A DNA stretch of 64,000 nt, taken from IMG/VR virus record IMGVR_UViG_2917791510_000001, positions 34,816 to 98,815 of that record; one strand, written 5' to 3'. The notes below the pieces were generated by a model. That model ran no database searches. It worked only from the letters and a program-made list of their open reading frames with translations, and was not told the DNA's origin. Positions 3,206 to 63,396 of the stretch are shown here, piece after piece; the first letter of the stretch is position 1; every line of letters begins with the position of its first letter. Origin of the DNA: a virus. Its lineage: Duplodnaviria; Caudoviricetes. Position numbers and translations under genes: made by a program.

Positions 3206-3279
3206 CCGGGCCGTTCGGCGATTTCCGGCTCCGTGGCTACCATCCGGCCATCGATCACAGACCAAGGAATGGGGTAGCC

Positions 3280-6941: not shown

Positions 6942-7018
6942 CCTGGACACCGGAGCCTGCATCTCATCCCCGTGGTGCGGGCTCCGCCGTCTCCAGGAAG
7001 ACCAAGGAACCGAGGACC

Positions 7019-13462: not shown

Positions 13463-13483
13463 AGAACAGCGACCAAGGAAGGA

Positions 13484-14018: not shown

Positions 14019-15119
14019 TCACAGGAACCGGTCCACCAAACCCTCGTAGACCTTCACGGCCGCCGCCGCGTGCCGGCGCTTGAGCGCTTCGTCGTCCCGG
14101 CGCCGGATGTAGCGCATCGTCGTGGCGATGTGGGAGTGGTCGGCGTACCGGCGGATGTCGTCCACCGTGGGCTTCCCGTCGTTCGACGCCTGGCCCTCGT
14201 CGTACATGTGCGTCAGCTTGGAGGCGCGCAGCACGTGCGGGGTGAGGTCCCGGCCGGGGAGCACACCGGCCTCACGGCCGAGGCGGTTCAGCAGCCGGTC
14301 CACAGCGTGCCGGTCCATCGCCCGGCCGTCGTCGTCCAGGAACAGCGGCCCGGAGGTGCGCCCCTCCCAGCACCGGGCGCCCAGCTCGCACAGCAGCGGC
14401 GGCAGAGTGAACTTCCGGCCCTTGCCGCCCTTGCGGGTCAGGTCCAGCTTGCACTCCCCGCCGACGGACGTCAGGTGGTGCATGCCGGCGGCGCAGCACT
14501 CGGAGACACGGCCGGCCAGCGTGTAGATGAGCACGGGCACGAACGCCTGCCGTGCCGTGGCCGCCTGCTCCACCACGGCCTGAAACTCCGGGACCTCGAG
14601 GACCGGCGTCATCGCCGTCTCGTCGTCCTGGTCGATCCTCGGCCGGTCGTACTTGGTGACCGGGTTGATGATGTCCAGCCGGGTGCGGAACCTGGTGTAC
14701 TCGATGAGCGAAGTCAGGCTGGACGCCAGGCGGTTGACCCGTCGCGCGCCGAGGCCGATGTCATCGGTCCACGCCCGCCACGCCGGGATCACGTCGGACG
14801 TGATGGCTCCGAGGTACCACGGCTCCGTGCCCGCCAGCTCCCGGCCGGCGCGAGCCCAGTGCCGCACGTCGTCCGCGTACTCGCGCCGCGTGCCGTCGGA
14901 CGTCAGCCGCTCGGAGGACAGCCACCCGCAGACGTGCTCGAACGTCTGCGCCTCGCACAGCTCGTGCAGCAGGTCCAGGCGGTGCACGCGCGGGCCGAGG
15001 CGCCGGGTCCTCGGGTCGCGGGGCGCGACGGTGCCCAGCCGCTCGCGCAGGCGCATCACCGTGCGCAGGGCCGGGTCGTCGGTGGCGAGCGTTCCGTGTT
15101 CCGTGGTCGTGAGGGTCAC
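14019..15119 (-). CDS. Tyrosine recombinase/integrase (XerC-like)
   Basis: GRVSE (R), RKGGK (K), HVLR (HxxR), HSHIATTMRY (H, Y). Confidence 0.9.
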   Translation of the reverse strand: MTLTTTEHGTLATDDPALRTVMRLRERLGTVAPRDPRTRRLGPRVHRLDLLHELCEAQTFEHVCGWLSSERLTSDGTRREYADDVRHWARAGRELAGTEPWYLGAITSDVIPAWRAWTDDIGLGARRVNRLASSLTSLIEYTRFRTRLDIINPVTKYDRPRIDQDDETAMTPVLEVPEFQAVVEQAATARQAFVPVLIYTLAGRVSECCAAGMHHLTSVGGECKLDLTRKGGKGRKFTLPPLLCELGARCWEGRTSGPLFLDDDGRAMDRHAVDRLLNRLGREAGVLPGRDLTPHVLRASKLTHMYDEGQASNDGKPTVDDIRRYADHSHIATTMRYIRRRDDEALKRRHAAAAVKVYEGLVDRFL

Positions 15120-24600: not shown

Positions 24601-24755
24601 AGCTGCGCACCCACCTGGCGTCCAACCAGCAGCTCGCCCTCGTCGCGGCCGGTATCCCGCAGCTCCACGAGGCCGTCAGCGAGACGGAGCTGGACCAGTG
24701 GGCCTACCGCCGCGTCCTTCAGACCCTGTCCCGCAAAGTCCACGGAGAGGAGTGA
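21648..24755 (+). CDS. Head maturation fusion protein: 2H phosphoesterase + MuF-like + Cys-rich linker + capsid maturation protease
   Basis: LHLTLQYLG; DNRTCRAC...CRG; ETGDGR, VGRID, GVSVD, ATLVDIPAF; lies between portal and capsid. Confidence 0.75.
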   Translation: MPQPTEHRCGLTAAGDDHTSGGMIALMPMAEDAARLAIDGGEPPEELHLTLQYLGDDGSLFTPEERTGLLDELRMLSQDLPPVVSKIFGIAHWNGDGDSPAWVWSVGDSPDGIALDAVHEMAEEAVWATALDVPDQHCPWAARICAAYTDDLSLAPELEQRLGPVTFDRIRVSFGDEDHDIPLTGDPVTASAAWMPRRDLTPLEVASRADFASVHHQWEAATTRALGALASVTAAWRLDLRQQITQRLAADDPGALPDLTLNTGDAAGVLLSLMEEYAVQAGRACQREAEAQGVTVPDWHIPDDDGEDGPLVAAGGRRLLRSIADFTSDLIAGSMLQAAKRTLSGWLRSKATPEAVAGEVDRALADDKPGMRGAAGSAMTAAQNAGRLAVFTAAPAANTYAASEVNDNRTCRACKQIDGTEFASLGEAMDAYPVMGYANCSGAAHGNACRGFLIALWQEVRDPSVTAGAGTQLAASGAAKGDTIVTTATDAQTEGLADKQCPPGMEPDQDGKCVKVQAAGDAEALAKGEPNPGTKKDKRLKENRQSAAGQPDCPPGMKPDPDGDGCVPTGQSAAVKCPPGWEPDSKGDGCVPSKKSAGDAETLAHGAAAEAQAVEGKPLDAMDGGQTAPWRGPLTVEGIETGDGREFKPEALTWADLPLPLRWNKEDSHGGEPHTVAVNVGRIDNIWREDGGLVMGEGVLDLSDEDGQRVHDKIKNQMLRGVSVDVDSIKDADMELVWPSDPDADGEGSPFDMLFASPEKVVFNKGRIRAATLVDIPAFAEAYIALLGEDGAVVAGGEPIGAMREVRVLRAAALTVDAPVRPPAAWFTDPHLSVPTGITVTPEGRVYGHAALWGTCHIGQAGVCVTPPQEESHPYFMTGNVWCEDQSSVQVGQITVGTGHAPLSYGYRAASDHYDNTGAAVADVAVGNDGHGIWVAGSIRPGTDESRIRELRAAGQVSGDWRRIGGSLRLVGLLAVNVPGFPVPKLRTHLASNQQLALVAAGIPQLHEAVSETELDQWAYRRVLQTLSRKVHGEE

Positions 24756-47464: not shown

Positions 47465-47778
47465 GCGGGCGCCTCCCCTGCTTCCTTGGTCTGTGATCTG
47501 TGGTGCGAGCGTCCTGCCTGGGGGGTGGGGACACGGCGCTCTGGCCCGGCGCCGTCCTGCGGCGGGGGCCGGTTGTTCGGTCAATACGTGCTGCCTCACG
47601 GGCGTTCCCCTCTGACGCGGTCCTTTCCTGCTCTACGGGGAGGGGCGCCGCGTCCGTCGGCGGCGGTTGTGCGAGTGCCCCGCCCTGGGGGAGGTGGGCG
47701 GGGCACTGGCGCCGTGGCGTGGGCGGGGGATTGCCTGCCACGGTGTACTGGCACGGAGTGTGCCAGCGGTTCGGTGAA

Positions 47779-48219
47779 TCACCGAACAGGCAGCTCAGGC
47801 CAGCTCTCGGCGTCCATCCGGCGCAGCCACGCGGCGACGCCCTGCCGTGCTTCGGGCGACAGCGTCACGGTGAAGCCGCCGGTACGGCCGCGCTGCCCGA
47901 TCGTCACCCCGGCTTTGCCGAACGGCAGTGTGCACCGCATCCGCGCCTCGGTGTGCGTGCCGTACATCACGGCAGCCTCGTCCCCACCGATGGTCAGCCA
48001 GCGGCCGTACGGCGTGCCGTACTCGTCGTGGCCCACGATGCCAGGGCACGCCTCTCCGGCGAACCACGCGGCCAGTGGGAGCAGGTAGCTGGGCTCGAGG
48101 GCCACGCTGCGGTGCTCCGGAACGCTTCCGGTCAGCACGGACAGGACCAGCTTTCCGTCGCCGGGTGCGAGGCGCAGCGCGGTGTCGGCGACGCTCCCGG
48201 AGATCTCGAAGGGTTCCAT
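47779..48219 (-). CDS. Hypothetical protein
   Basis: Start after the leader motif. Confidence 0.65.
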   Translation of the reverse strand: MEPFEISGSVADTALRLAPGDGKLVLSVLTGSVPEHRSVALEPSYLLPLAAWFAGEACPGIVGHDEYGTPYGRWLTIGGDEAAVMYGTHTEARMRCTLPFGKAGVTIGQRGRTGGFTVTLSPEARQGVAAWLRRMDAESWPELPVR

Positions 48220-48349
48220 GGGTTCTGCTTTCCTTGGTCGGTTGTGAGGGGTCACGATCCGGCGAGTCCCATTAGCCCACGGGGGCGGGTTGGGACCTAA
48301 CGGCCCCGGAGGTCGGCAACCCCGGGGCCTCACTGGTTCTGTCGCCGCG

Positions 48350-48685
48350 TCAGCGCTGCTCGCACTTGTGCTGGACGATAACGGCGGCCTGCTCCCAGTC
48401 GACGGACTCGGTTCCGGCTCCCTGCCGCATCTGGTCGGCGGCCCACTGGGTGCCGTACAGCGCGATACCGGCGCACATGGCGTCCTTGCGGGACTCGGAG
48501 GTCCCCGCCCAGGTGATGTCCACGATGAGGGCGGTTTCGTCCTCGGTGGGCGTGGGCGTGGGGTCGACGGCCGGCCGCTCGACGCTGCGGGTGGTGCCGG
48601 TGCTGGGTGCGGGAGAGGTGCTGGTGCCGCAGGCCGTGAGCAGGCCGAGAAGAACGGCGGCGGGTGCTATGCGGTGCAGGTTCAC
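48350..48685 (-). CDS. Lipoprotein
   Basis: LLGLLTAC lipobox. Confidence 0.7.
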   Translation of the reverse strand: MNLHRIAPAAVLLGLLTACGTSTSPAPSTGTTRSVERPAVDPTPTPTEDETALIVDITWAGTSESRKDAMCAGIALYGTQWAADQMRQGAGTESVDWEQAAVIVQHKCEQR

Positions 48686-48772
48686 GTTCGGTTCCTTCGT
48701 TCCTTGGTCAGTGTTCGATGAGTTGATTAAGCCGGGGCCCCGGGACCATGAGGACCCGGGGCTCGGAGCGGG

Positions 48773-49318
48773 TCAGGCAGCGGCGGCCTCGCGCACGTAG
48801 CGCTTGATCAGTCCGTAGCGCAGGGCGTAGCCCTGCGCCTCAGCCATGTCGGCGAACCACAGGCCGTCGTGAACGGGGTGACGGATCAGCACGCCCTTAC
48901 CGCCCATGTCGTTCACGACGTCGTCGTCCCAGTCGTAGACGTTGAGCGTCACGCCAGGTTTGCCGCCACCGAAGGGGTAGGAGACGCCCCACGATGTCGC
49001 CGTCACGTACGTCTCGCCGGCGTCGTGCTCGGCGTCCCGGGTGCCCCGCAGCGCAGCAGCGCCGTCCAGCGTCTGGTCCAGCCAGTACGCGAATTCCTCG
49101 CCCCGGCCGTCCTTGAACATCCGCAGCGCGGTGCGCAGGTTGTCGGCGACCGCGCGCTGGTAGGTGGGCCCGTAGGTGATGAGTTCCAGCAACTCGTTGG
49201 AGACGACCCGCAGGAACGCCGCACGGGAGACCGGCTCGCGGCCTTCCGCAGTCGCCTCGGCGGGCAGGGCCCGCTCGAACGTCGCGAGGGCTTCGGCGGT
49301 CTGGTGCGAACCGAACAT
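48773..49318 (-). CDS. Hypothetical protein
   Basis: GGAGG RBS, downstream of a conserved promoter. Confidence 0.65.
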   Translation of the reverse strand: MFGSHQTAEALATFERALPAEATAEGREPVSRAAFLRVVSNELLELITYGPTYQRAVADNLRTALRMFKDGRGEEFAYWLDQTLDGAAALRGTRDAEHDAGETYVTATSWGVSYPFGGGKPGVTLNVYDWDDDVVNDMGGKGVLIRHPVHDGLWFADMAEAQGYALRYGLIKRYVREAAAA

Positions 49319-49355
49319 GACGGCCTCCCGGGAGGTTGTGTCGGGGCCGTTCCCC

Positions 49356-49393
49356 GATGAATTAATTAAACCATGAAGCCCCGGGGTCGGCAA
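49356..49393 (-). promoter_or_regulatory. Conserved phage promoter/operator
   Basis: TTGCCG-N17-TTTAAT; the -35 lies in the loop of hairpin 49375-49405. Confidence 0.8.
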
Positions 49394-49425
49394 CCCCGGG
49401 GCTTCGGTTCTTCGGCGGACTGCGG

Positions 49426-49632
49426 TCAGGCTTCGCCGTCCCTGGCGGCCGGCCGGCGCGTGGCCCACCCGATGACCAGGGTCGTGGTGCCCAGGGCAGT
49501 GAAGGCCCCGGTCAGGATCCCGCCTGCGACAGCAACGGTCATAGCGCCGTGCTCGGACGCCTCGGCGGCCACCAGGGCAGCGCCCGCGCCGATCGCCGTC
49601 AAGGCGACGCCCAGCTTCGTGTTCTTCTGCAT
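49426..49632 (-). CDS. Small membrane protein
   Basis: Two TM helices; leader motif. Confidence 0.6.
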   Translation of the reverse strand: MQKNTKLGVALTAIGAGAALVAAEASEHGAMTVAVAGGILTGAFTALGTTTLVIGWATRRPAARDGEA

Positions 49633-49681
49633 GGTCTGCTTCCTCATTCCTTGGTCAGTGGTCGACTTATAGGTTTGTCGT

Positions 49682-49954
49682 TCAGTTGTCCAGGGCGGTG
49701 ATGTGCTGCTCGACGATACCGACGCGGGCGATCTCCATCAGGGCCGTGCCCTCGGAGCAGTCCGGCCGGCTGTCGTCGATGCAGGCGGGGCAGCCGGTGA
49801 CGTGGTCGGAGAACTCGGAGAACGCGCTGTAGTACGGCAGCACCTCCAGCAGGTCCCGCTCCGGTATGGGCATCGAGTCCAGGCCTGCGAGTCCCTCGGC
49901 ATCGGCCGCGTCCTGCATGTCCGCCAGGTCCCAGTTCTTCCACGTCGTACGCAT
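49682..49954 (-). CDS. Hypothetical protein
   Basis: Leader motif; HVTGCPAC. Confidence 0.65.
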   Translation of the reverse strand: MRTTWKNWDLADMQDAADAEGLAGLDSMPIPERDLLEVLPYYSAFSEFSDHVTGCPACIDDSRPDCSEGTALMEIARVGIVEQHITALDN

Positions 49955-49997
49955 GGCCGCTTCCTCATTCCTTGGTCTGTGGTCGGCGGTGCTCAGG

Positions 49998-50198
49998 TCA
50001 GCCGGCCCGCCGGGCCAGCTCGCGGCGGATGGCCTCGTAACAGAGGTCGTCCTCGCGGGTGCGGCCGGCGAAGTTGCTCGGCTTGTACGCGTCGCGGTAG
50101 CCCTGGAGTTGACCGAGGTTCAGCCGCGCCGTGTTCTTGGCCGTCGCGGCGAGGATGCGCTCCTCGTCCTCCGTGAACTGCGGCTCCGTGGCGTCCAT
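49998..50198 (-). CDS. Hypothetical protein
   Basis: Leader motif. Confidence 0.6.
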   Translation of the reverse strand: MDATEPQFTEDEERILAATAKNTARLNLGQLQGYRDAYKPSNFAGRTREDDLCYEAIRRELARRAG

Positions 50199-50238
50199 CG
50201 TGTCCTCGTTCCTTGGTCGGTGGTCTCGCCGATCGGGG

Positions 50239-50519: not shown

Positions 50520-51314
50520 ATGACCACCACACTCATCACCGCCGTCACGAACCAGAAGGGCGGCGTGGGCAAGACAGCCACGACCATCGGCCTCGCCGGT
50601 GCGCTCGCCGAAGCCGGGAAGAACGTCCTCATCGTCGACCTGGACCCGCAGGGCCACCTCACCGACGGACTCAAGGTCCCGAAGGCTCCGTCCGGTACCG
50701 GCGCCGCCAACCTCTACCGCGCGCTGGTCGGCGAGTTCACCGGATCCCTCGCCGACCTGATCGCCACGCACTCCGAGCCCGCAGGCCGCATCGACGTCGT
50801 CCCGAACGCGTACGAGATGTTCATGGCCGTGCGTGACGTCGACAAAGTGAAGGCCCGTGAGCAGCGCCTGGCCAAGATGCTTGCCCCTGCCCGGGGTGTC
50901 TACGACCAGGTGCTCATCGACTCCCCGCCGTCCCTGGACATCCTCACCGACAACGCGCTCACGGCTGCCGACGGCGTGCTGATCCCGGTGCAGGCGGAAG
51001 ACTCGAGCCTGACCGCGCTCCAGCTCCTGCTCCCGCAGATCGCATCGGTGGACGCGGATCTGCGCACCAAGCCCCTGGAACTGCACGGCCTGGTCGTCAA
51101 CCTGCTGCGACGGCCGGTCAACACCCTCGCCAAATCCGTCCTGGACGAGCTGGGCAAGCTGGAGGGCCTGCCGATCCTGGCCACGGTGCCGCTGTCCGTC
51201 GTCATCACCGAGGCGTGGCGGTACGGCAAGACTCCGGTGGACTACGCGCCCGACAGCGAGCACGCCGGGGCGTACCGGACCCTCGCCAAGGTGCTCACCG
51301 AGGCCGCACGGTGA
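50520..51314 (+). CDS. parA: ParA partition ATPase
   Basis: NQKGGVGKT, DLDPQG, IDSPP. Confidence 0.92.
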   Translation: MTTTLITAVTNQKGGVGKTATTIGLAGALAEAGKNVLIVDLDPQGHLTDGLKVPKAPSGTGAANLYRALVGEFTGSLADLIATHSEPAGRIDVVPNAYEMFMAVRDVDKVKAREQRLAKMLAPARGVYDQVLIDSPPSLDILTDNALTAADGVLIPVQAEDSSLTALQLLLPQIASVDADLRTKPLELHGLVVNLLRRPVNTLAKSVLDELGKLEGLPILATVPLSVVITEAWRYGKTPVDYAPDSEHAGAYRTLAKVLTEAAR

Positions 51315-52126
51315 GCCCCAAGGAACTCCCGGCGCCGGGCAGGGCGGGCGACCTCACCGCGCTGCTGCGCTCCAGGCACAGCGCTCCCACAGTCCCTGCC
51401 GCGCCGGCGCCCGCGCTGAACCCGTTCGCCCCGCAGCCCGTCGACCCGGCCGCCGTCACCGGGTCCGCCGAGCAGCGCCTGGCCGTGTTCGAGGCAGCCA
51501 TCGACCGGGCGAAGGAGACCGCAGGCACCACGCTCAAGGCGGCCCGCGCCCGGTTCGTCGTGGAAGCGGGCACAGCCCTGCGCGCCATCCGCGACGAGGA
51601 CGGCGGGCTCTACAAGCTGACCCACGAGACGTTCGAGGACTACATCACCGCCCGGTGGGACATGGACCGCACCCGCGCGTACCAGCTCATCGACGCCGCG
51701 CCGGTCATGCTCGTCATGTCGAAAATTTTCGATACGGCGCCGGTGGAGTCGCACGCCCGCGTGCTGGCCCCGGTGCTCGAGGGCCACGGCGAGCCGGCCG
51801 TGCGCGAGGTCTACGCGGCCATGCAGACGAAGGGAGAGAAGGTCACGGCGCAGGCCATCAGGGACGCGGCCGACCGCCTGGGCTACGCCCGGGTGCCGGT
51901 GCAGCCGACGGCCGACGAGCGGGAGGCCCTGCCGGTGGACCACACATCGAGCGAGGCCCGCGCGCTGGTCCGGCTCGAGCAGGGACTGGCCGCACTGCGG
52001 GGAGCCCATCGCGCCCTGCGCGGGCGGGTCATCCCGGACGCGGTGGCCGCCGACCACGCGCACGGCAGCCTGCTGGTGGCCGAAGTCGCCGACCTCGCCG
52101 CGAAGATCAGCCGCCTCGCGCAGTGA
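51311..52126 (+). CDS. ParA partner, putative centromere-binding HTH protein
   Basis: Coupled to parA; TFEDYITARWDMDRTRAYQLI HTH. Confidence 0.6.
   Translation: MSPKELPAPGRAGDLTALLRSRHSAPTVPAAPAPALNPFAPQPVDPAAVTGSAEQRLAVFEAAIDRAKETAGTTLKAARARFVVEAGTALRAIRDEDGGLYKLTHETFEDYITARWDMDRTRAYQLIDAAPVMLVMSKIFDTAPVESHARVLAPVLEGHGEPAVREVYAAMQTKGEKVTAQAIRDAADRLGYARVPVQPTADEREALPVDHTSSEARALVRLEQGLAALRGAHRALRGRVIPDAVAADHAHGSLLVAEVADLAAKISRLAQ
51717..51734. promoter_or_regulatory. Palindrome TGTCGAAAATTTTCGAYA, candidate parS
   Basis: Related copies at 21898-21915 and 63480-63497. Confidence 0.5.
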
Positions 52127-54526: not shown

Positions 54527-54623
54527 TGGGCCCGTCCGGAGTCGAACCGGAGTCTCCCGGAGCGCGGGAACCGACCAAGGATGCGCGCTCGACGGGTGCT
54601 CTGCCTGACTGAGCTATAGGCCC
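54527..54623 (-). ncRNA. tRNA-like RNA with extended anticodon arm carrying a 17-nt antisense loop
   Basis: GGGCCTA TA GCTC-AGTCAGGCA-GAGC A CCCG TC GAGCGCG-[CATCCTTGGTCGGTTCC]-CGCGCTC CGGG AGAC TCCGG-TTCGACT-CCGGA CGGGCCC A. Confidence 0.85.
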
Positions 54624-54660
54624 TCGTTGCCGGGATCGCGGCTCCCGGCCGGCCGTCACG

Positions 54661-55038
54661 CTACAGTTCGTCTTCGCCGAGGCCGCGCCGGATCGCGTTG
54701 GCGAGCCCCAGCGGGTCGCCGTGGAACCGCGAGCCGTGGTCGACGCGGACCCCGACCTCGCTCAGATACTCACTTGCGCGGGACCGACGCTGGTTCCACG
54801 CCCACTGTTCGTCGGTGTAGATGCGGCCGTGCCCCGACTCGCTCGCCCGGGTGTCCATGCGGAACCGGCAGCAGTAGTGCGGAAGATAGGCTCCGTTCAA
54901 GGGGTACACGTCGACCCACAGCCGGCCGACCTTGAGCACCTCGACGCGTACCTCCAACGTCCGGCGCCCGTCACGTGCGGACACCATCAGTTCGTCGCCC
55001 TTGGCAGGCCTGCCCAGCTCGGGTTCCTTGTCGCTCAT
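54661..55038 (-). CDS. Hypothetical protein (beta-barrel-like)
   Basis: GAGGAACCGGCCATG leader. Confidence 0.65.
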   Translation of the reverse strand: MSDKEPELGRPAKGDELMVSARDGRRTLEVRVEVLKVGRLWVDVYPLNGAYLPHYCCRFRMDTRASESGHGRIYTDEQWAWNQRRSRASEYLSEVGVRVDHGSRFHGDPLGLANAIRRGLGEDEL

Positions 55039-55071: not shown

Positions 55072-55737
55072 TTACGGGGTGGTGCGGCGAGCGATGAAGT
55101 CGGCCGCGTTGACGGCGACGAACATGCCGCGCGAGCCGGCGGGGCCGACGGCCGACCACACACCGCAGGGCTCGCCCGTTACCGCGTGGGGTTCCGGGCG
55201 CAGCGTCCAGTCGATGTCGTTCGCCTTCACGGTCACCGTGCCGTCCAGGCGTACGAGGGGCTCCAGACCCTTCGCCTGGAGGGCCGTGACGAGCGGGGCT
55301 GACAGGTCGGGCACGGCCGGGGCAGTCAGCTCATCGGCCGGCGGGCCGAGACGCTGGAACAGGTTGTCCAGCCCCGAGTCGAGAGTCTCCCGCACCGTGT
55401 CGGCGGTCAGGTCGTCCTCGTCGCATTCGTCGCACAGCGCGTAGTTCTCGCCCGTGAGACGGCTCACCTCCGTGGCCCACCGGTTGCCGCACACGACGCA
55501 GCGCTGCGGGGTGGCGATGGTCTCGCCGGTCGCACGGTCGATGATCCGGACGTCCAGCTCGCTCTCACGCCAGTTCGCGGTGGACAGCATCGTGCGCATG
55601 TCCTCCCAGGCGGCGCCCAGGGTCCACGTGGGTTTGCGGCCGGATCCGCCGTCAGCCCACGTCCACACGACTGCGTACGGCATGGTCTGGCCCTTGCTGT
55701 GGCCGCCGCCCTTGCCGCTGCCTCGCGTTCCGCTCAT
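55072..55737 (-). CDS. Hypothetical protein
   Basis: GGAACCGACCATG leader; CxxC pairs. Confidence 0.65.
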   Translation of the reverse strand: MSGTRGSGKGGGHSKGQTMPYAVVWTWADGGSGRKPTWTLGAAWEDMRTMLSTANWRESELDVRIIDRATGETIATPQRCVVCGNRWATEVSRLTGENYALCDECDEDDLTADTVRETLDSGLDNLFQRLGPPADELTAPAVPDLSAPLVTALQAKGLEPLVRLDGTVTVKANDIDWTLRPEPHAVTGEPCGVWSAVGPAGSRGMFVAVNAADFIARRTTP

Positions 55738-55780
55738 GGTCGGTTCCTTACTCCCTGGTCAGCCGGTCCGCCCGGCCTCT

Positions 55781-55816
55781 TGATTTAATTAAACCATAGG
55801 GCCCCGGGGTGTGCAA
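55781..55816 (-). promoter_or_regulatory. Conserved phage promoter/operator
   Basis: TTGCAC-N17-TTTAAT; the -35 lies in a hairpin loop. Confidence 0.8.
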
Positions 55817-56375: not shown

Positions 56376-56399
56376 GGCCGGTTCCTCATTCCTTGGTCG

Positions 56400-56594
56400 T
56401 CAGGCAGCGGTGGCGCCGGCGAGCCGCAGACCGCAGTGCAGGCCCCGGTCCAGGCCGACGGAGTACACACGATTCACGACCTTCATCGCCTCGCCGTACG
56501 GCACGCCGAGGGCGCGCAGCTCGTTGATGGCAGCCTCGGTCTGGTCCATGGCGGCGGTGAAGCCGGGGTCTGCGATGCGGTCCTGCTTGTTCAC
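56400..56594 (-). CDS. Hypothetical protein
   Basis: GGAGGGG RBS. Confidence 0.55.
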   Translation of the reverse strand: MNKQDRIADPGFTAAMDQTEAAINELRALGVPYGEAMKVVNRVYSVGLDRGLHCGLRLAGATAA

Positions 56595-56683
56595 GGCGGG
56601 GTTCCCCTCCCTGTCACCTCTCGGCCGGACGGATCATACGGCCGAGGGCGGATTTAACGTTCCTGGTTCCTTGGTCGTGCGGG

Positions 56684-56926
56684 TCAGAGTTCGACGACGG
56701 TGAAGGTGCCGTAGTTCTCGCCGGCCTCGCTGAGCAGGTAGCCACCGAGCCCGTTGGCGTCCAGGCCTCCGCCGATTACCTCGCGGTTGCGCTGGGCGGT
56801 CCGGCTGCTGTTGACGTAGTCGCCGATGTTCAGCTCCAGCTCGGTCCGGTCGCTCGCCTCGGTGACGAGGGGCGCCACGTTGAACTCCCGGCCGATGCGG
56901 GCGAAGCTGACGCGGTACTTAGCCAT
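56684..56926 (-). CDS. Hypothetical protein
   Basis: Full leader GACCAAGGAATGAGGAACCGACCATG. Confidence 0.65.
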   Translation of the reverse strand: MAKYRVSFARIGREFNVAPLVTEASDRTELELNIGDYVNSSRTAQRNREVIGGGLDANGLGGYLLSEAGENYGTFTVVEL

Positions 56927-56973
56927 GGTCGGTTCCTCATTCCTTGGTCTGCCGGTCCGGGTAACCCCGTTCC

Positions 56974-57012
56974 GATGGATTAATTAAACCATGAAGCCCC
57001 GGGGAGGTGTAA
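56974..57012 (-). promoter_or_regulatory. Conserved phage promoter/operator
   Basis: TTACAC-N18-TTTAAT; hairpin at 56993-57024. Confidence 0.75.
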
Positions 57013-57041
57013 CCCCGGGGCTTCGGTTCGATGTTCGGTTG

Positions 57042-57995
57042 TCAGGCGACGCCCACCGCCCGGAACAGGGCCGCCGCCAGACCGACGGGGCAGGCGTTGC
57101 CGATCTGCTGGCCGATGTCCCGGCCGGACCACGGGTGGTCCAGCGGGAAGTCCTGGAGCCGCCCCGCCTCGGCCCACGAGAAGCGGGGCAACTCCTCACC
57201 GTCCGGCCCGACAAGCCGGTTGCGGCTGATCTTCCCGGTCACCGTGAACGCCGGCTGGTGGCTGGTGCGCTCTCCCCGGTTGTCCGGGTCCCCGCCGGTG
57301 CCGTAGTTCGAGATGACGGTGAACGGGCCCCGGCCGGGCAGGGCGCCACCCATCGTCACGTACGGAGCCAGCGACGGGTCTCCGTCGTGCACGTGGACGT
57401 CCTTGACGTACGGGCGGCAGATCGGAGAGGGCAGGGCCACGTCGCCGTCCCGCCGGGCCAGCAGTACGGCCCGGCGCCGGGTCTGCGGTACGCCGTACTG
57501 CTCGGCGTTCAACACGCCGTGGGCGACCGCGTAGCCCTCGGCCCGCAGCACCTCCGCGTACGCCTCCCACACGTGACGTGCCGCCTGCACCTGCTCCAGC
57601 ACCACGGCGCGGTACGGCCGGCCCGCGTCCTTCGCCCGGAGGATCCACCGCAACGGCTCCAGGACCAGGGCGGAGCGCTCGTCCAGCCCGTCCTCGGGCA
57701 CCGTCTCGCGGGCGGCCATGAGTTTGACGCGGCGGTGGACCAGGTCCAGCCGCTTGCGGCCCTCGCCCCGGCCGGCGACCGAGAAGCCCTGGCACGGCGG
57801 ACCACCCGCGAGGGTGTCCGACTCGGGCAGGTCGGCCGGCCCGTACTTCGTCACGTCGCCGTGGATCGTGTCGAGCCGGGCGGCCAACCTTGTGGCCACG
57901 GCGTCGTCGTCCCACTCGATGCCCACCGACTTCACTTTGAGGGCGCGAGCCGCGACGTCCATGCCACCGGGTCCCGCGAAGAGATCCGTGATCAC
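57042..57995 (-). CDS. DNA (cytosine-5) methyltransferase
   Basis: DLFAGPGG, GPPCQGFS, EQV, YGVPQTRRR, IGNACP. Confidence 0.9.
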   Translation of the reverse strand: MITDLFAGPGGMDVAARALKVKSVGIEWDDDAVATRLAARLDTIHGDVTKYGPADLPESDTLAGGPPCQGFSVAGRGEGRKRLDLVHRRVKLMAARETVPEDGLDERSALVLEPLRWILRAKDAGRPYRAVVLEQVQAARHVWEAYAEVLRAEGYAVAHGVLNAEQYGVPQTRRRAVLLARRDGDVALPSPICRPYVKDVHVHDGDPSLAPYVTMGGALPGRGPFTVISNYGTGGDPDNRGERTSHQPAFTVTGKISRNRLVGPDGEELPRFSWAEAGRLQDFPLDHPWSGRDIGQQIGNACPVGLAAALFRAVGVA

Positions 57996-58273
57996 CTCGC
58001 CACCGCCTCGGGCAGCACCGAGGCCCGGTGGCCAGGCAGCAGCGTCTTCCACTCCTCGGCCGAGCAGGGCAGGCACAGCGTCCCGGCGCCGGTCTCGGGC
58101 AGCGGGTTGCGGCAGTCGCCGAAGTGGCACTGCCCGTCGCCCTGGCAGAAGCCGTCCAGGCAGCGGCCCGCGTCGGCGCAGGGGCCCAGCAGCGTAGCCC
58201 GCACGAACCGGCCGTCACTGAGCTGTATGCGCCCCTGGAAATTGATCCGGGGCGCGAACGTCACCGTCGCCAT
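57992..58273 (-). CDS. Cys-rich hypothetical protein
   Basis: Coupled to the methyltransferase. Confidence 0.55.
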   Translation of the reverse strand: MATVTFAPRINFQGRIQLSDGRFVRATLLGPCADAGRCLDGFCQGDGQCHFGDCRNPLPETGAGTLCLPCSAEEWKTLLPGHRASVLPEAVAR

Positions 58274-58276
58274 GAA

Positions 58277-58723
58277 TCAGCCCTCCCGCCGGACCGAGTG
58301 CAGCGTGAAGCTCCAGTTGGACCGGGGGCCGTGCTCCGCGCGGACCTGCTTGAGCGCCTCGAACCGCGCCTCCAGCTCGGTGCGCGCGTTGACGAAGACG
58401 GGCAGCAGCTCGTTCCCGCTGCCGTCAGCCTCCACGGCCTTGTGCTGAAGCGTCACGGTCCACCGGCGGTAGGTCACCCGGCGCGGGAAGACCTGGGACG
58501 GCTGGTAGCGGCGCGTGTCGTTCTCACCCTCCCGGGCGCAGCGCAGGTGCAGGCCGTCGGTGCGCACGTAGACCGCCGGGAACTCGATCTCCCGGCCGTC
58601 CTCGTCCAGGGTGCGGATGGTCACCGGCTGGCCGATGGTCACCTGGCCGGGGCGCAGGTGTGCGAGTCCGGGGCGGACGCCGGGCCGGCGGGTCGGACGC
58701 TCCACCGAGTAACTGGTCATCAC
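58277..58723 (-). CDS. Hypothetical protein
   Basis: Leader motif at 58741. Confidence 0.65.
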   Translation of the reverse strand: MMTSYSVERPTRRPGVRPGLAHLRPGQVTIGQPVTIRTLDEDGREIEFPAVYVRTDGLHLRCAREGENDTRRYQPSQVFPRRVTYRRWTVTLQHKAVEADGSGNELLPVFVNARTELEARFEALKQVRAEHGPRSNWSFTLHSVRREG

Positions 58724-58767
58724 GGGCCCTACTTTCCTGGTTCCTTGGTCTCTGACCTAACGGCCAT

Positions 58768-58803
58768 TGAATTAATTAAACCAGGAAGCCCCGGGGTCGG
58801 CAA
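58768..58803 (-). promoter_or_regulatory. Conserved phage promoter/operator
   Basis: TTGCCG-N17-TTTAAT; hairpin at 58785-58815. Confidence 0.8.
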
Positions 58804-58835
58804 CCCCGGGGCTTCGGCTTTCTGCTGTCGGGCGG

Positions 58836-59618
58836 TCAGTCGTCCCTCTGCGTCCACCCCATGAACTCGACACCGGATACAGCGCCGTCCCGAGAGGTGG
58901 CCACTCCGGTGGGCGCCCAGCCGGCGTCGATGAACTTCCGTGCGGTTTCGGCGGGCACCCAGCGGTCGCCGCGCTCCGGGTCGGACATCCACCCGGCCAG
59001 TGCGTCCGCCGTGGGGAACACCGGGCTGATGGGCGAGCCGTCGGACACGGTCTCCCAGAGCTGCCAGCCCTCGCCTTCCGGCGGGCCGGTAGGTACCCAC
59101 GCGTCGGCCTCGGTGCGCTGCCCCGGGTACTTCTCCGTCGAGCCGTGGCCATCGCAGACCTTGCAGCTCACGTCCGTACCGGTCACCTCCAGTAGCTTGG
59201 TCATTACGGCGTAGTTCGGCTGCCGCCCGAACAGCGACCCGGTGATCTGTTCCTTGTCGACGCCCATCAGGACGGCGAAGAAGTCCAGGGCGTCCGTGGA
59301 GGGGCGGTCGATGACGAAGCGTCCCGGCCCGGACTGCGGATCACCGGCCACCGGGTACTCCCAGTGGCCGTGCGGGTGCGGGAACTGGCTCAGCCACGGG
59401 TGCATCGGCTTGCCGCGCTCCTGCTCCCGGACGTCCTCGGCGAGCATCCCCATGACGTACGAGAATTTCTGGAGCCACCAGCCGAAATGAGTCTGGCCGC
59501 TTCCGTCGCACTCCTCGCAGCGCGTTCCCTCCAGCTCGGCCGGGCGGATGTAGCCGCCCCACACCTTGTTCAGCGGCCAGTCGAAATCAAGCGGCACGCG
59601 CCGCACTTCGTTGCTCAT
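58836..59618 (-). CDS. Conserved phage protein with DnaJ-like CxxCxGxG motifs
   Basis: EVRRVPLDFDWP, CEECDGSG, CKVCDGHG, WQLWETVSDGSPISPVF. Confidence 0.7.
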   Translation of the reverse strand: MSNEVRRVPLDFDWPLNKVWGGYIRPAELEGTRCEECDGSGQTHFGWWLQKFSYVMGMLAEDVREQERGKPMHPWLSQFPHPHGHWEYPVAGDPQSGPGRFVIDRPSTDALDFFAVLMGVDKEQITGSLFGRQPNYAVMTKLLEVTGTDVSCKVCDGHGSTEKYPGQRTEADAWVPTGPPEGEGWQLWETVSDGSPISPVFPTADALAGWMSDPERGDRWVPAETARKFIDAGWAPTGVATSRDGAVSGVEFMGWTQRDD

Positions 59619-59681
59619 GGTCGGTCCCTTCCTTGGTCGGTGCCGGGACCGTCACGGTAGCGGTCCCGGGGCTCTGGCCGG

Positions 59682-59897
59682 TCAGACGGTGTCGTGCTTC
59701 CCGCCGACGTAGCAGCGGCAGGTCTCGCCGGGCTTGCAGGCGTGGAAGACGGCTCGTTTCGCCTCCATGTCCTGCGGCTGGTCGCCCTGCTCGCGGCGCC
59801 ACCCGCACCGGCACAGGGTCTGGTCCAGGAACGGGATGTACGTGATGAGGGCGTGGCCACGTGCCGCGCACCAGGTCCTCGTGGATTCCGACACCAT
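59682..59897 (-). CDS. Hypothetical Cys-rich protein
   Basis: AAGGAG RBS. Confidence 0.5.
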   Translation of the reverse strand: MVSESTRTWCAARGHALITYIPFLDQTLCRCGWRREQGDQPQDMEAKRAVFHACKPGETCRCYVGGKHDTV

Positions 59898-59898
59898 G

Positions 59899-60066
59899 TC
59901 ACTGCTCCTTCGGCGTACGGCCGATGACAACCAGAAAGTCGTCCGACGCGCGGTCCATGATGACCTCTGCGTCCGGGTTCCCCGCCTTGCGCTCCTCAGC
60001 GGCCCGTGCTTCGGCCGGCCAGGATCCCTGCGGGTGTCCTGCGGGGGAGCTGAAAAGTACCTTCAT
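59899..60066 (-). CDS. Hypothetical protein (55 aa, MKVLFSSP...)
   Basis: Full leader motif. Confidence 0.6.
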   Translation of the reverse strand: MKVLFSSPAGHPQGSWPAEARAAEERKAGNPDAEVIMDRASDDFLVVIGRTPKEQ

Positions 60067-60087
60067 GATCGGTTCCTCATTCCTTGG

Positions 60088-60351
60088 TCAGGCCTGCGTG
60101 ACGCCGTACAGGGCGTCCACCGCGTCGCCGTGGATCCTCGCCGCGTCCCCGGACGTCTCGGCCCGGAGGCTCGTCTCCCCCACGGTCCACCCGGCGTAGG
60201 CCTTGCCCTGGTGCCGCTGAGTGGGGGTGTCGTCAACGACGACCGTGACGTAGTACGCCTCGACGCCGTCCCGGTGGGTGACCGTGGCCCGCACCGTGGA
60301 GACGGAGACGGTCAGGGCGGCCGTGCGCACGGGTGTCTGCTTCGGCTGCAT
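60088..60351 (-). CDS. Hypothetical protein
   Basis: Leader motif. Confidence 0.6.
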   Translation of the reverse strand: MQPKQTPVRTAALTVSVSTVRATVTHRDGVEAYYVTVVVDDTPTQRHQGKAYAGWTVGETSLRAETSGDAARIHGDAVDALYGVTQA

Positions 60352-60438
60352 CGCCGGTTCCTCAATTCCTTGGTCGGTGAGGCTGAGCGGCCTCGTGGGG
60401 AGCACGGACGGCGGAACGGCCGCACTCCCGGGCGGGGC

Positions 60439-60585
60439 TCAGTACCCGTACCTGCGCTTGTAGATGCGATTCGCCAGGATGACCGGGCGCACCTCGGGGT
60501 GCCGGTAGCTGCGGGGCGTCTCCCGGGCCTCGCCCTGGAGGTACGCCGCCTGCTCGTTCTTGCGGACGAGGATGATCCTCAGCAT
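60439..60585 (-). CDS. Hypothetical protein (48 aa, MLRIILVRK...)
   Basis: GAGGAACCGACATG leader. Confidence 0.55.
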   Translation of the reverse strand: MLRIILVRKNEQAAYLQGEARETPRSYRHPEVRPVILANRIYKRRYGY

Positions 60586-60643
60586 GTCGGTTCCTCTCTG
60601 CTTCGGGCCGGGGCCGCCGGTCGACGGCCCCGAGGTGGTTCGG

Positions 60644-61063
60644 TCAGGCGTTGACCAGCTTGCGGGCCGGGCGGACGGCCTGGCGGACGGTCACCGGGGC
60701 GCCGTTGGCCAGGACCATGAGCACCACGGCCGCCTTGACGTCCGCGCGGCGGGGCTTGTAGTTGCGGAGCAGGACGCCGACCTGAGCGGTGGTGAAGTGG
60801 TACGTGACCTTCGTCCGCTTCTCCTTGCCCCGCACGGTGCGGTGGCGGCGGACGACCTTGACGGGCTTCATCCCGAGCCGCTTGGCCACCGACCGCAGGC
60901 CGTTCGCCACGCCCTCGACGGTCTCGGTGCTCTCCACGCCGGCCGCGATGGCGTGCGTGGCCAGGGCCCGACCGCGCTTCAGCGAAGCGGTGAACCGGGT
61001 GGCGGAGGCGCGCTCGCGGATGACCTGGAGGCGGCGGCGGGAGGGCTTCAGCGTCTTCGTCAT
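60644..61063 (-). CDS. Highly basic hypothetical protein (possible nucleic-acid binder)
   Basis: K/R-rich; first gene after a promoter; leader motif. Confidence 0.65.
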   Translation of the reverse strand: MTKTLKPSRRRLQVIRERASATRFTASLKRGRALATHAIAAGVESTETVEGVANGLRSVAKRLGMKPVKVVRRHRTVRGKEKRTKVTYHFTTAQVGVLLRNYKPRRADVKAAVVLMVLANGAPVTVRQAVRPARKLVNA

Positions 61064-61095
61064 GGTCGGTTCCTGCTTCCTTGGTTCCTTGTTCC

Positions 61096-61133
61096 GATGA
61101 CTTAATTAAATCAGGGTTCGGACGACAGGGCAA
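61096..61133 (-). promoter_or_regulatory. Conserved phage promoter/operator
   Basis: TTGCCC-N17-TTTAAT. Confidence 0.8.
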
Positions 61134-61192
61134 CCCCTGGACGCGAAGAAGCCCCGACCCGGTGAAGGATCGGGGCTCAGTGCCGGCGCCGG

Positions 61193-61444
61193 TCAGGCGG
61201 TCGCGCGTGCCGCGCGCTTGGCAATCTCCTCGGCTGCCTCGTCCATGGCCTGCTTGAGCCGGGTCGTGCACAGGCTCTCCTCCACACCGATGTGCTCGCC
61301 GAGGCCCATCAGGTGCCAGGACGGTCCGTCGGTGAGGAAGAGCTGCCAGCCGTCGGGCGCGGTCTCCCACCGGATCCCGGGCGTCTGGCAGTACCAGGTG
61401 TGTCCGGCCCGGGTAAGGCTGCGGCCGGTACGGAAGTCGTTCAT
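61193..61444 (-). CDS. Hypothetical protein
   Basis: GAGGT RBS. Confidence 0.6.
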   Translation of the reverse strand: MNDFRTGRSLTRAGHTWYCQTPGIRWETAPDGWQLFLTDGPSWHLMGLGEHIGVEESLCTTRLKQAMDEAAEEIAKRAARATA

Positions 61445-61462
61445 ATGATTACCTCTCTGCGG

Positions 61463-61678
61463 TCAGCGGCTGCGGGGCTCCAGCCGCTCGCGGGCGATGC
61501 GCTGCTCGCGCCAGTCGTTGTTACCGACGGCTCGACCGCGCCCGGTGCTGCGCGTCGTCTGCCACCGAACCTTGACCTTGGCCCCGCCGGTGTCCTCTAC
61601 GACATCGGCGGCGCGGTCGGCGGTGATGCTCCCGGGGTACGTGATCCACACCGCGTCCCCGGGCTTGAAGTACTCCAT
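61463..61678 (-). CDS. Hypothetical SH3-like protein
   Basis: FKPGDAVWI; leader motif. Confidence 0.6.
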   Translation of the reverse strand: MEYFKPGDAVWITYPGSITADRAADVVEDTGGAKVKVRWQTTRSTGRGRAVGNNDWREQRIARERLEPRSR

Positions 61679-61696
61679 GGTCCGTTCCTTCCTTGG

Positions 61697-61924
61697 TCAG
61701 TGCGCGGCGAGCCAGTTCAGAATCGCGGCCGTACCCGTGAGGGGGCGGGACGCAGTGGCCGCCCATCGGATGTGCCCGTTCAGGCCGAAGCCGACCCGGA
61801 GGTACCCGCCGCCTCGCTTGCGGTACTCCACGGTCGTGCTCAGACCGTCCCGGTTGTGGACGTGCCAGCCGTGGTCCTCGGCGTGCGCGGTGATGCGCTG
61901 CTCGTTGCGAGACGGTGCGGCCAT
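61697..61924 (-). CDS. Hypothetical protein
   Basis: Leader variant GACCGAGGAA. Confidence 0.55.
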   Translation of the reverse strand: MAAPSRNEQRITAHAEDHGWHVHNRDGLSTTVEYRKRGGGYLRVGFGLNGHIRWAATASRPLTGTAAILNWLAAH

Positions 61925-61944
61925 GGCTGGCTGTCCTTCCTCGG

Positions 61945-62220
61945 TCAGACGCCGCAACGGGCGTTCATCGCGACGTGGCGGCGCATGTAGCTGCGGTACC
62001 CGGCCTCTGCCATGCGCTTGGCGTCGGCCAGAGTGCGGTACCCGGTCACCTGCCAGCCCAGGCCGGCCTTGCCGAAGGGCTTGACCATGTAGGACCAGGT
62101 CCCGTCGTCGCTCCGCGCGATCTCGGCGAGGACGGTCTGGCCGTCGCTGCCGATGCGCTTGTAGAAGCCGGCGAAGACGCGGGTCCAGGTGCTGGCCTTG
62201 GAGTTCGTGGTCTTCGTCAT
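61945..62220 (-). CDS. Hypothetical protein
   Basis: AAGGAG RBS, after a promoter. Confidence 0.6.
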   Translation of the reverse strand: MTKTTNSKASTWTRVFAGFYKRIGSDGQTVLAEIARSDDGTWSYMVKPFGKAGLGWQVTGYRTLADAKRMAEAGYRSYMRRHVAMNARCGV

Positions 62221-62249
62221 CGTCGGCTCCTTCGTCCTGTGTCTCTCTC

Positions 62250-62287
62250 GATGATTTAATTAAACCATGGATGCCCGGGGTCGACAA
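62250..62287 (-). promoter_or_regulatory. Conserved phage promoter/operator
   Basis: TTGTCG-N17-TTTAAT. Confidence 0.8.
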
Positions 62288-62336
62288 CCCCAGACGCAGA
62301 GAAGCCCCAGAAATCCGAAGATTTCCGGGGCTCCGT

Positions 62337-62528
62337 TCAGGACCGGACGGTGAACCCGCCGGACAACGCGCGGCGGATCTCCGCACCCGGCGCCCGGATC
62401 ACGCCGGGGCCGAGGGCGACCAGTCCCGGGGCGAGCCGGTCCATCTCGTTCAGCAGCTCGGCCACCCGGGCCGCTAGCTCAGCCATCCGCTCTTCCTCGT
62501 CCCGGATCTCGCGCATGCTTCCCTTCAT
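62337..62528 (-). CDS. Hypothetical protein
   Basis: Coupled ORF. Confidence 0.55.
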   Translation of the reverse strand: MKGSMREIRDEEERMAELAARVAELLNEMDRLAPGLVALGPGVIRAPGAEIRRALSGGFTVRS

Positions 62529-63109
62529 GACACTGCCTCCTCGGTTGTGTAGCCGATGGCCTGGTCCAGGACGGACCAGAGCACGTCGTCGCGGCCCCAG
62601 ACGGGGTCGATGACGGCCAGGGCGACGCCCTCACGGGCCATTTGACGACGGGCGCGGCGTCCGATGCCAGGCAGTGCGGAACGCCGCCAGCCGCGCCCTG
62701 ACCGGCCTCCGAAGCCGGTGTGCGGCTCGCTGCCCCACCGGGTCGCTGCGACGCCGCGACGGGGCCCTACAGCGCGTCCGGCACCGTGGGCCGTGACGAT
62801 GAGCCCCGCCGCCCGCGCCGCCCGGATGATCCGGGGCAGCAGCGGATCGCCAACGGCGATGTAGCCCTGTACGGCCGCGCGCTGGGTCCACGGCCTGCCG
62901 TCGAACGCGACGTCATCGAGCCCCGGCTGTGAGTCGGTGGTGACGAAGCCGCGCCGGTTCAGCCGGGCCAGGACCGGAACCCGGGGCAGCGTCTCGTCGT
63001 CCGGGCCGGCTGAGCAGCCGGGCTGCGAGTCGATGTGGCCCTCCAGCCAGCCGGCCATCGCGCCGCCGAGGTCACCGATGCTGCGGGCATCCCGCCAGAT
63101 GCGGTCCAT
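62525..63109 (-). CDS. DUF6919-like protein
   Basis: WLEG...PDDET...LNRRGFVTTDSQPG...QRAAVQG...DPVWGR. Confidence 0.65.
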   Translation of the reverse strand: MDRIWRDARSIGDLGGAMAGWLEGHIDSQPGCSAGPDDETLPRVPVLARLNRRGFVTTDSQPGLDDVAFDGRPWTQRAAVQGYIAVGDPLLPRIIRAARAAGLIVTAHGAGRAVGPRRGVAATRWGSEPHTGFGGRSGRGWRRSALPGIGRRARRQMAREGVALAVIDPVWGRDDVLWSVLDQAIGYTTEEAVS

Positions 63110-63111
63110 GG

Positions 63112-63366
63112 TCAGCCGGCCAGGAACGGGGCGGGGTCGACCGCGTCGCCGTCGGTGAACAGCCAGGCCTCGAACTTCTCCGGGCTCATGCGCTTCTCCA
63201 GCTCGTCCGTCAGCCAACCCCGGACGACAGGCAGTTCGTCGCTCATCGGCATGGTCTCGGTCTTCAGCCACGCCACGCTCAAGGCCCCGTCCGTCAGGCG
63301 GCTGAGCTTTTCCCGGGCGGCGCCTTCGGACTTGCGGGCCCGCTCTTGCAGTGCGTACGCGTCCAT
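63112..63366 (-). CDS. Hypothetical protein
   Basis: Leader motif. Confidence 0.6.
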   Translation of the reverse strand: MDAYALQERARKSEGAAREKLSRLTDGALSVAWLKTETMPMSDELPVVRGWLTDELEKRMSPEKFEAWLFTDGDAVDPAPFLAG

Positions 63367-63396
63367 GTCTTCCTCGTTCCTTGGTCGGTGTCCCGT

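Follow-up and report, generated by a model that had tools for sequence, protein, structure and literature searches.

The stretch of viral DNA analysed here (the window, 64,000 nucleotides) encodes on its minus strand a tRNA-shaped RNA, RNA-A, whose anticodon arm ends in a loop complementary to a leader motif of the same genome, and which probably switches off the translation of about 30 non-structural phage genes. RNA-A is real, conserved and non-random. As far as can be judged from sequence, it would represent a new form of antisense control in phages, with an exapted tRNA as its scaffold and an entire regulon as its target. The phage record is 98.8 kb long, with 69% GC; the window, its right-hand 64 kb, encodes terminase, portal, capsid and tape-measure proteins.

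The first-pass annotation had described the minus strand at 54527-54623 as a tRNA cloverleaf, which is borne out by a match to the Rfam tRNA family RF00005 (42.2 bits against a gathering score of 29, E 4.5e-6), whose alignment places a 33-nt insertion within the anticodon arm, and by the minimum-free-energy fold, which is the cloverleaf itself, at an unexceptional fold energy (z −0.59). The D loop, T loop and acceptor stem are those of a canonical tRNA, by the same score and by covariation, while the 5-bp anticodon stem, 7-nt loop and U33 are replaced by an 11-bp arm (4 bp, a 2-nt bulge and 7 bp) and a 17-nt loop at 54567-54583, just as annotated. The structural checks then proposed gave a divided answer: ARAGORN at default settings calls no tRNA at 54527-54623 (−), whereas the minimum-free-energy fold and the Rfam tRNA model are positive. 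CCA is not encoded after RNA-A here and is encoded in several homologues. An 8.2-kb contig from a sequencing run is identical to the RNA-A region, the run being possibly the source of this DNA itself. The parts of the RNA are the following:

54527..54623, minus strand: tRNA-like RNA (RNA-A), 97 nt up to the discriminator A, from fold, RF00005 and covariation
54598..54614, minus strand: D arm, with GG in the D loop; in homologues one pair shows a compensatory change from U-A to A-U
54556..54596, minus strand: extended anticodon arm, 4 bp, 2-nt bulge, 7 bp and loop
54567..54583, minus strand: antisense loop, 17 nt, with a 14-nt core (54567-54580) invariant in the close clade
54535..54551, minus strand: T arm with canonical T loop; its first pair has undergone a compensatory U-A/C-G change
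54629..54649, minus strand: 5′ leader hairpin, which also precedes canonical tRNA genes of related phages

The fold model predicts that the loop is closed into an apical hexaloop UUGGUC with a YUNR-type tetramer; the hexaloop so predicted is the exact complement of GACCAA, the core of the first of two sites found in the leaders. The loop pairs these sites in two overlapping registers. Site 1, ACCGACCAAGG, contains the SD-like AAGG and, in the close clade, precedes the start by about 8–18 nt, in most cases with a second SD-like element on its 3′ side. At site 2, GGAACCGACCA, pairing spans the 3′ half of the SD (GGAACC), the spacer and the A of the AUG. The pairings annotated earlier were all reproduced, namely 13 bp at 48231-48243, 12 bp at 50210, 59630, 60367 and 63378, and 11 bp at the three GGAACCGACCA sites (55735, 56924 and 61061). 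Candidate target leaders and other motif copies in the window, together with the ParA gene, are:

56924..56949, minus strand: target leader with both sites (GACCAAGGAA, 3 nt, GGAACCGACC, ATG)
55735..55747, minus strand: site 2 of the first gene of RNA-A's own operon, 11 bp including the A of AUG
61061..61073, minus strand: site 2, 11 bp
48230..48243, minus strand: site 1, longest match, 13 bp
47482..50218, minus strand: cluster of six site-1 leaders (47482, 48230, 48700, 49647, 49968, 50209)
56389..63386, minus strand: cluster of nine site-1 copies (56389, 56667, 56940, 58741, 59629, 60080, 60366, 61689, 63377)
3260..3269, plus strand: site-1 leader of a nucleotide-sugar epimerase gene
7000..7009, plus strand: site-1 leader of a 158-aa gene upstream of the terminase large subunit
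13471..13480, plus strand: site-1 copy
50520..51314, plus strand: ParA-type ATPase, with no motif in its leader

Outside the window, the gene at L422:10749-15086 (+) encodes a 1446-aa fusion of a primase/D5-like helicase and a family A DNA polymerase, and its leader holds two tandem site-1 copies.

No 10-mer of the genome is more over-represented than GACCAAGGAA, with 35 copies against 0.22 expected, 18 of them inside the window. Genome-wide, 28 copies precede a called start by no more than 40 nt in sense orientation and no copy does so in antisense, which upholds the earlier statement that all gene-associated copies are sense to their genes. The same orientation is found across six genomes (20–29 sense copies per genome within 40 nt of starts placed by a simple gene caller, mostly at 8–18 nt; antisense, 0). 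The motif had been credited to about 20 genes: its presence is evident, the count was too low, as it reaches about 30 genome-wide, and the window copy at 56668 has no start behind it. When leaders with at least 8 contiguous loop-complementary bases are counted, this genome has 33 against a mean of 1.1–1.4 for shuffled or random 14-mers, so that the comparison with shuffled controls named in the first-pass annotation comes out in favour of the loop; RNA-bearing genomes have 26–35 such leaders each, with a null mean of 1–1.5. None of the 26 leaders of the structural block is loop-complementary, against 33 of 116 elsewhere in this genome (p 6e-4), and the structural block of every RNA-bearing genome has 0–1. 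Host assemblies contain about 12 motif copies per 8–9 Mb outside the phage contig, against about 30 per 93-kb phage contig. The leader motif marks about 30 non-structural genes, is phage-specific and is kept out of structural genes.

The motif is nevertheless under some further constraint besides RNA-A, since the two A's that follow site 1 are nearly invariant (155/158 and 151/158) and cannot be paired by most loops, and since the frequent leader variant GACCACGG breaks pairing with the loop. Substitutions in site 2 are wobble-compatible in 39 cases against 15 others, figures to be read knowing that 7 of the 10 possible transitions are compatible, that the genes are homologous and that the RNA-less genome G010 follows the same trend.

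Relatives were first collected by a capsid search (80–84% identity), and the six large ones all carry both the motif (11–40 copies) and the RNA. A pattern search on the scaffold only recovered an identical loop in every member having this scaffold. The 14-nt loop core is invariant in 13 of 13 distinct close-clade sequences, and their stems are paired in 88% of cells, with 15 double-sided changes at three pairs; none of 500 shuffles scored as high, a statistic inflated by the kinship of the sequences. In one subgroup the D arm is shortened and the D-loop GG and T loop are retained. A covariance model built from this set found a divergent copy in G007 (capsid 61–63% identical), whose four stems are all different and whose loop has the sequence UUCGGUCGGUUCC; in G198 (capsid 60%) the acceptor, arm and T stems are different and the loop contains CUUUGGUCGGUUCC. 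Despite the changed stems, GGUCGGUUCC is retained in the loops of both deep homologues, and the part kept is the anti-site-2 half. G198 and the other loop-pattern finds were ascertained on the loop; unbiased are the homologues that came from the capsid search or from searching with the scaffold alone.

In G198 the motif is the ribosome-binding site itself (CCGACC-AAGGAG, 16 leaders, 5–9 nt before the start in most), and the loop covers the first SD bases, with a single C-to-U change that remains paired as G-U. In G007 the loop has lost the full site-1 match and the leaders still carry GACCAAGG/GACCACGG. A true compensatory change of loop and motif was found in none of the homologues, the wobble-compatible one of G198 being the only change of the kind. 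Of the idea of a guide RNA whose loop tracks its genome's leader motif, the antisense loop stands, as do the homologues and the co-occurrence of RNA and motif in related phages; programmable covariation is conjecture. A YUNR tetramer, a feature of fast-binding antisense loops (PMC6562991), occupies the seed position in 3/3 lineages, being a short sequence and hence weak evidence.

All complete motif-rich genomes that were examined have the RNA, and the covariance model finds no such RNA in G010, G014, G016, G026 and G031, which have 0–6 complementary leaders. On the capsid tree, whose base is weakly resolved, presence of RNA and motif needs two changes, and 61 of 500 shuffles are as low. With essentially one clade and two changes on a weak tree, these data amount to one or two events, not to statistical co-evolution. 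Among the INPHARED cultured phages none carries RNA-A and none is close (capsid about 30–34% identical). An exact 17-mer loop match in L001 was set aside as chance.

No promoter of RNA-A's own was found. A possible −10 had been annotated at 54658-54663 (TAGCGT), which we reject: the TAG within it terminates the upstream ORF, and relatives do not conserve the hexamer. The relevant elements are:

55788..55816, minus strand: putative sigma70-like promoter TTGCAC, 17 nt, TTTAAT, with overlapping AT-rich palindrome, the nearest upstream of RNA-A
49370, 50457, 55793, 56988, 58780, 61111, 62264, 63409 (minus strand) and 13449 (plus strand), among others: promoter-like units
54661..55038, minus strand: upstream ORF, Phage_ProQ_C_like (PF24203), neighbour of RNA-A

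The promoter at 55788..55816 falls below the threshold of a generic promoter scan. In eight close genomes, RNA-A lies 0.6–2.2 kb downstream of a promoter of the type TTG-N17-TTTAAT with an AT-rich palindrome. About 20 promoter-like units, GGGGTTG, about 17 nt and TTTAAT, overlapped by an AT-rich imperfect palindrome, precede early genes; in all likelihood these are early promoters that carry repressor operators, comparable to ESAS. In soil contigs that lack the intervening 221-aa gene, the promoter is joined directly to the next ORF, and in one soil contig RNA-A is kept while the flanking genes on both sides differ. The upstream early-class promoter and these rearrangements suggest that RNA-A is probably cut out of an early transcript, and its substrate-like shape, together with the missing promoter, suggests processing by RNase P. 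The ProQ-C-like neighbour was considered as an obligate partner and discarded (PF24203 matches only this genome, the RNA-less G010 and, weakly, G004; by blastp also G007 and G198), and a dedicated protein partner for RNA-A is likewise rejected.

As for origin, G010 carries a canonical 72-nt tRNA after the orthologous upstream gene, that is, at the syntenic site of RNA-A, and the leader hairpin of this tRNA is nearly the same as the leader of the RNA in G007; similar hairpins precede tRNA genes in other relatives. The syntenic tRNA and the shared hairpin suggest, as the probable direction of change, descent of RNA-A from a phage tRNA gene. Apparently, a tRNA gene has been caught as it was exapted for regulation, and G010 would still show the ancestral tRNA. 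RNA-A shares with canonical phage tRNA genes the acceptor, D and T arms, the discriminator A, an often encoded CCA, and the leader hairpin and position of the G010 tRNA; it differs from them in that its homologues have no anticodon, an 11-bp arm, a 13–18-nt loop and no U33 geometry.

We consider it on balance probable that a phage tRNA gene has been exapted into a trans-acting, multi-target antisense RNA, combining a stable host-processed scaffold, early co-transcription and occlusion of the SD or spacer. What is seen in the sequences is an intact D/T elbow, acceptor stem and discriminator, and a loop conserved under stem turnover. A strong sigma70-type promoter 0.6–2.2 kb upstream would drive RNA-A together with early genes, and the host tRNA machinery (RNase P, 3′ trimming, CCA addition) would free a stable RNA of about 100 nt which, being far more stable than mRNA, would build up with a delay. 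The apical UUGGUC would then seed on GACCAA, pairing would spread over site 1 (SD-like AAGG) or site 2 (GGAACC, spacer and A of AUG), and the loop-leader duplex would exclude the 30S subunit, so that translation of early and replication genes would drop and motif-free structural mRNAs would be spared. Co-transcription, the processing delay and tRNA-like stability would together produce a delayed early shut-off that spares late mRNAs, in effect a timer working by delayed negative feedback; it could serve lysogens as well, by damping leaky lytic translation. The loop had been suggested earlier either to block ribosomes or to recruit them: the tRNA scaffold with its antisense loop gains strong support from the comparison of relatives, and blocking is favoured over recruitment, since both registers would compete with 30S binding (SD bases or SD-to-AUG spacer). 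A point against the repression model is that one RNA with a constrained loop must titrate about 30 strongly transcribed mRNAs through contacts of 9–13 bp.

The purpose of such blocking had been given as global switch-off or superinfection immunity. An intra-lytic timer appears likelier, and immunity less likely, because RNA-A lies downstream of its targets' promoter class and has no promoter of its own. The immunity reading may be modelled on the CI RNA of satellite P4, a related antisense regulator: RNA-A would pair nascent leaders and cause polarity or premature termination, locking the plasmid-prophage and blocking superinfecting kin. Several observations are in line with this. Close relatives are whole 92–96 kb contigs in Streptomyces isolate assemblies, and the best sequencing matches to our DNA are assemblies of 12 Mb, from which, with ParA and a tyrosine recombinase, we infer that the group consists of temperate Streptomyces phage-plasmids; there is an 11-bp site on the first gene of RNA-A's own operon; and, besides CI, C4 of phages P1/P7 offers a precedent, being processed by RNase P and partly occluding ribosome-binding sites (PMC5320573). 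However, the promoter upstream of RNA-A bears the same operator-like palindrome as the early promoters, and the clade shares one identical loop, unlike immunity determinants, which usually diversify (C4 a′ loop, PMC5320573); this leaves this reading unlikely.

The comparison with C4 (RF01695) is nonetheless instructive. Both RNAs are phage-encoded and small, with loops that pair, or in RNA-A would pair, with phage mRNA at the ribosome-binding site, the processing and stability of RNA-A being putative. C4 consists of three stem-loops with two target loops directed at one operon and a specificity loop varying between phages, whereas RNA-A is a full cloverleaf with a D/T elbow, with one loop in two registers, 26–35 dispersed targets and a clade-invariant loop. 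The C4 covariance model gives no match to RNA-A at E≤1. The loop of RNA-A is, as in C4, complementary to phage RBS regions. C4 controls an antirepressor operon and confers immunity; RNA-A has about 30 dispersed putative target genes, in a temperate context. By analogy, RNA-A would work like C4 but is not a member of its family. A literature search, with subscription papers mostly beyond its reach, found no description of RNA-A, and the earlier claim that no such system has been described holds for the architecture and not for the mode of action, which is close to that of the C4 and CI antisense RNAs.

An opposite reading makes RNA-A a translation activator or adaptor, whose loop would bind upstream of the SD at site 1 while the tRNA body loads or holds ribosomes, giving early mRNAs an advantage over those of the host. 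RNA-A would be co-expressed with its targets, to judge from the shared promoter class; conservation extends to its elbow and acceptor stem, genes needing early expression are those on which the motif is enriched, and site 1 of the close clade lies mostly 5′ of the second SD-like element. Yet pairing at site 2 covers the 3′ half of the SD and the entire spacer to the AUG, site 1 is the SD itself in G198, and the loop part conserved in deep lineages is the anti-site-2 half. Also, the geometry of the ribosomal tRNA sites does not accommodate an 11-bp arm with a 17-nt loop. We regard activation as improbable. A phage-private variant, in which the tRNA body engages the ribosome or a host factor and the loop reads site 1 and then site 2 up to the AUG, we hold to be equally doubtful; if true, motifs of this kind would be addresses for RNA-guided initiation or cutting and not mere blocking sites.

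Motifs of this kind are known in other actinophages as start-associated sequences (SAS), which in Cluster K mycobacteriophages and Microbacterium cluster EF are oriented, over-conserved RBS motifs of non-structural genes (PMC3203893, PMC11373665, PMC7302621). Their partner was left open as "either RNA or protein" (PMC3203893) and they were still without one in PMC11373665. The target motif of RNA-A is likewise asymmetric, oriented, over-conserved, near non-structural starts and rare in the host; it differs in being another sequence (the 13-bp Cluster K consensus is not that of our leader motif), in being bipartite (site 1 and site 2) and in having a tRNA-shaped complementary RNA.

The remaining reading of some weight, which we also find hard to credit, takes RNA-A as a processing or stability element that merely punctuates a transcript, as many tRNA-like inserts of Streptomyces mobile DNA would, or as a decoy for tRNA-targeting defence. 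A protein would then recognise the motif, or the motif would be no more than a strong RBS, and the complementarity would be left over from a leader captured in inverted orientation. In favour are the two invariant A's and the GACCACGG variants, which pairing does not explain, and the phages AnnaSerena, TM4 and Pixie, in which SAS are present and an antisense copy is absent. The many other tRNA-like RNAs with extended arms, a wide family, point the same way. In prophages and islands of Streptomyces (L252, L254, L273, L364, L365, L375, L347, L328, L070 and L392-L396) such RNAs have variable, often pyrimidine-rich loops, with no consistent complement in their flanks except in L273, where a near-perfect one lies about 100 nt downstream. 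A second tRNA-like RNA of our phage, RNA-B (L421:17113-17209, −, outside the window and upstream of a 195-aa gene), occurs in at least 7 relatives with a conserved acceptor stem and an arm varying freely in length and sequence, and no repeated target of it was found. RNA-B and the Streptomyces family indicate that extended-arm tRNA scaffolds are common raw material. However, RNA-B also serves as an internal control: in the same phages its arm turns over, unlike the fixed RNA-A loop, in which 10–14 bases are held while the adjacent stems change. What appears peculiar to RNA-A is thus a loop kept unchanged as the complement of the leader motif of its own genome. Moreover, the phage genome encodes no protein of the CsrA type (PF02599) and no Ro60/TROVE gene.

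That the motif is a DNA-level site (stoperator or operator), with an inverted copy in the RNA gene by chance, is very improbable: asymmetric oriented repeats are typical of Cluster A stoperators (PMC3203893), but here the repeats keep a narrow distance to start codons, and the inverted copy lacks the motif's invariant AA in most homologues and coincides exactly with the loop of an RNA structure that covaries. An intron-containing tRNA spliced to a normal 76-nt tRNA, conceivable from the complete tRNA body and the insertion inside the anticodon arm, can be dismissed, as no single excision restores a canonical arm (5-bp stem, 7-nt loop, U33, purine 37) in any of nine homologues, the lower stem differs in length between them, and bacteria to our knowledge lack a tRNA splicing endonuclease.

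Other comparisons set RNA-A apart. YrlA and other tRNA mimics use a tRNA-like elbow in a non-decoding role, as RNA-A would; unlike the Y RNAs, RNA-A has no Y RNA match in Rfam and no Ro60, and it ends at the acceptor stem without circular permutation. In a CsrA/RsmA regulon the sponge RNA is sense, whereas RNA-A is antisense. The closest likeness in design is the engineered tRNA scaffold, in which the insert is placed in the anticodon arm and a host-processed, nuclease-resistant body carries foreign RNA in place of the anticodon; RNA-A differs in being natural, conserved and provided with genome-wide complementary sites.

Returning to repression, RNA-A would give the actinophage SAS, without a partner since 2011 (PMC3203893, PMC11373665), their first candidate partner and a testable mechanism, the shut-off of an early regulon by RNA. 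The same logic may extend to the genetically tractable Cluster K phages. A single unexplained inverted SAS in K1 phages is mentioned in the SAS literature (PMC3203893; PMC11373665), and this lone copy forms the terminal loop (CCUCCUAUCC) of a hairpin (about 19 bp, z −2.8). The hairpin has matches in 126 records that cover at least 80% of it, and it shows pair-preserving changes. Examples are:

L383:14851-14901, Mycobacterium phage Anaya 59850-59900, plus strand: anti-SAS hairpin
L390, Adephagia, gap between genes 92 and 93: anti-SAS hairpin, where late transcription starts
L388, OkiRoe about 1030-1080: anti-SAS hairpin, at the left end

In Amgine and Ekdilam the hairpin loop is degraded and the SAS unchanged. 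The hairpin is suggestive of a candidate anti-SAS RNA, and of an analogue of RNA-A only, since it is not tRNA-shaped, is degraded in these two phages and is absent in TM4 and Pixie. More RNAs like RNA-A probably stand unannotated, being invisible to default ARAGORN, and, if repression is true, the scaffold would be a ready-made, host-processed antisense tool for Streptomyces.

A number of further observations were made. Extended-arm tRNA-like RNAs with other loops (one UUUGACA) and no leader regulon occur at G010:4331-4421 (+, L189) and G016:75679-75766 (−, L190). The window holds at 48250-48300 (−) the deleted remnant of a 71-nt tRNA-like gene with a CUC anticodon and an unusual T loop, intact in G001 and G002. 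Gordonia phage Ghobes has an unannotated intergenic tRNA-like element with a 4-nt anticodon loop (39293-39362; L232:19962-20031, +), and two high-GC phages (L441 and L447, from G186 and G187) have tRNA gene arrays with several enlarged or irregular anticodon arms. A parA operon (50520-52126, +) and a tyrosine recombinase gene (14019-15119, −) are both present in the window; G001 and G006 have a non-homologous gene in place of the first par gene. The gene at 21648-24755 (+) encodes a 1035-aa head protein with portal- and protease-like regions, whose residues 13-184 match a PHROG annotated as RNA ligase. Finally, GAAGCCCCGG occurs in 27 copies in the phage genome against 0.8 expected, and probably represents the arms of terminator hairpins.
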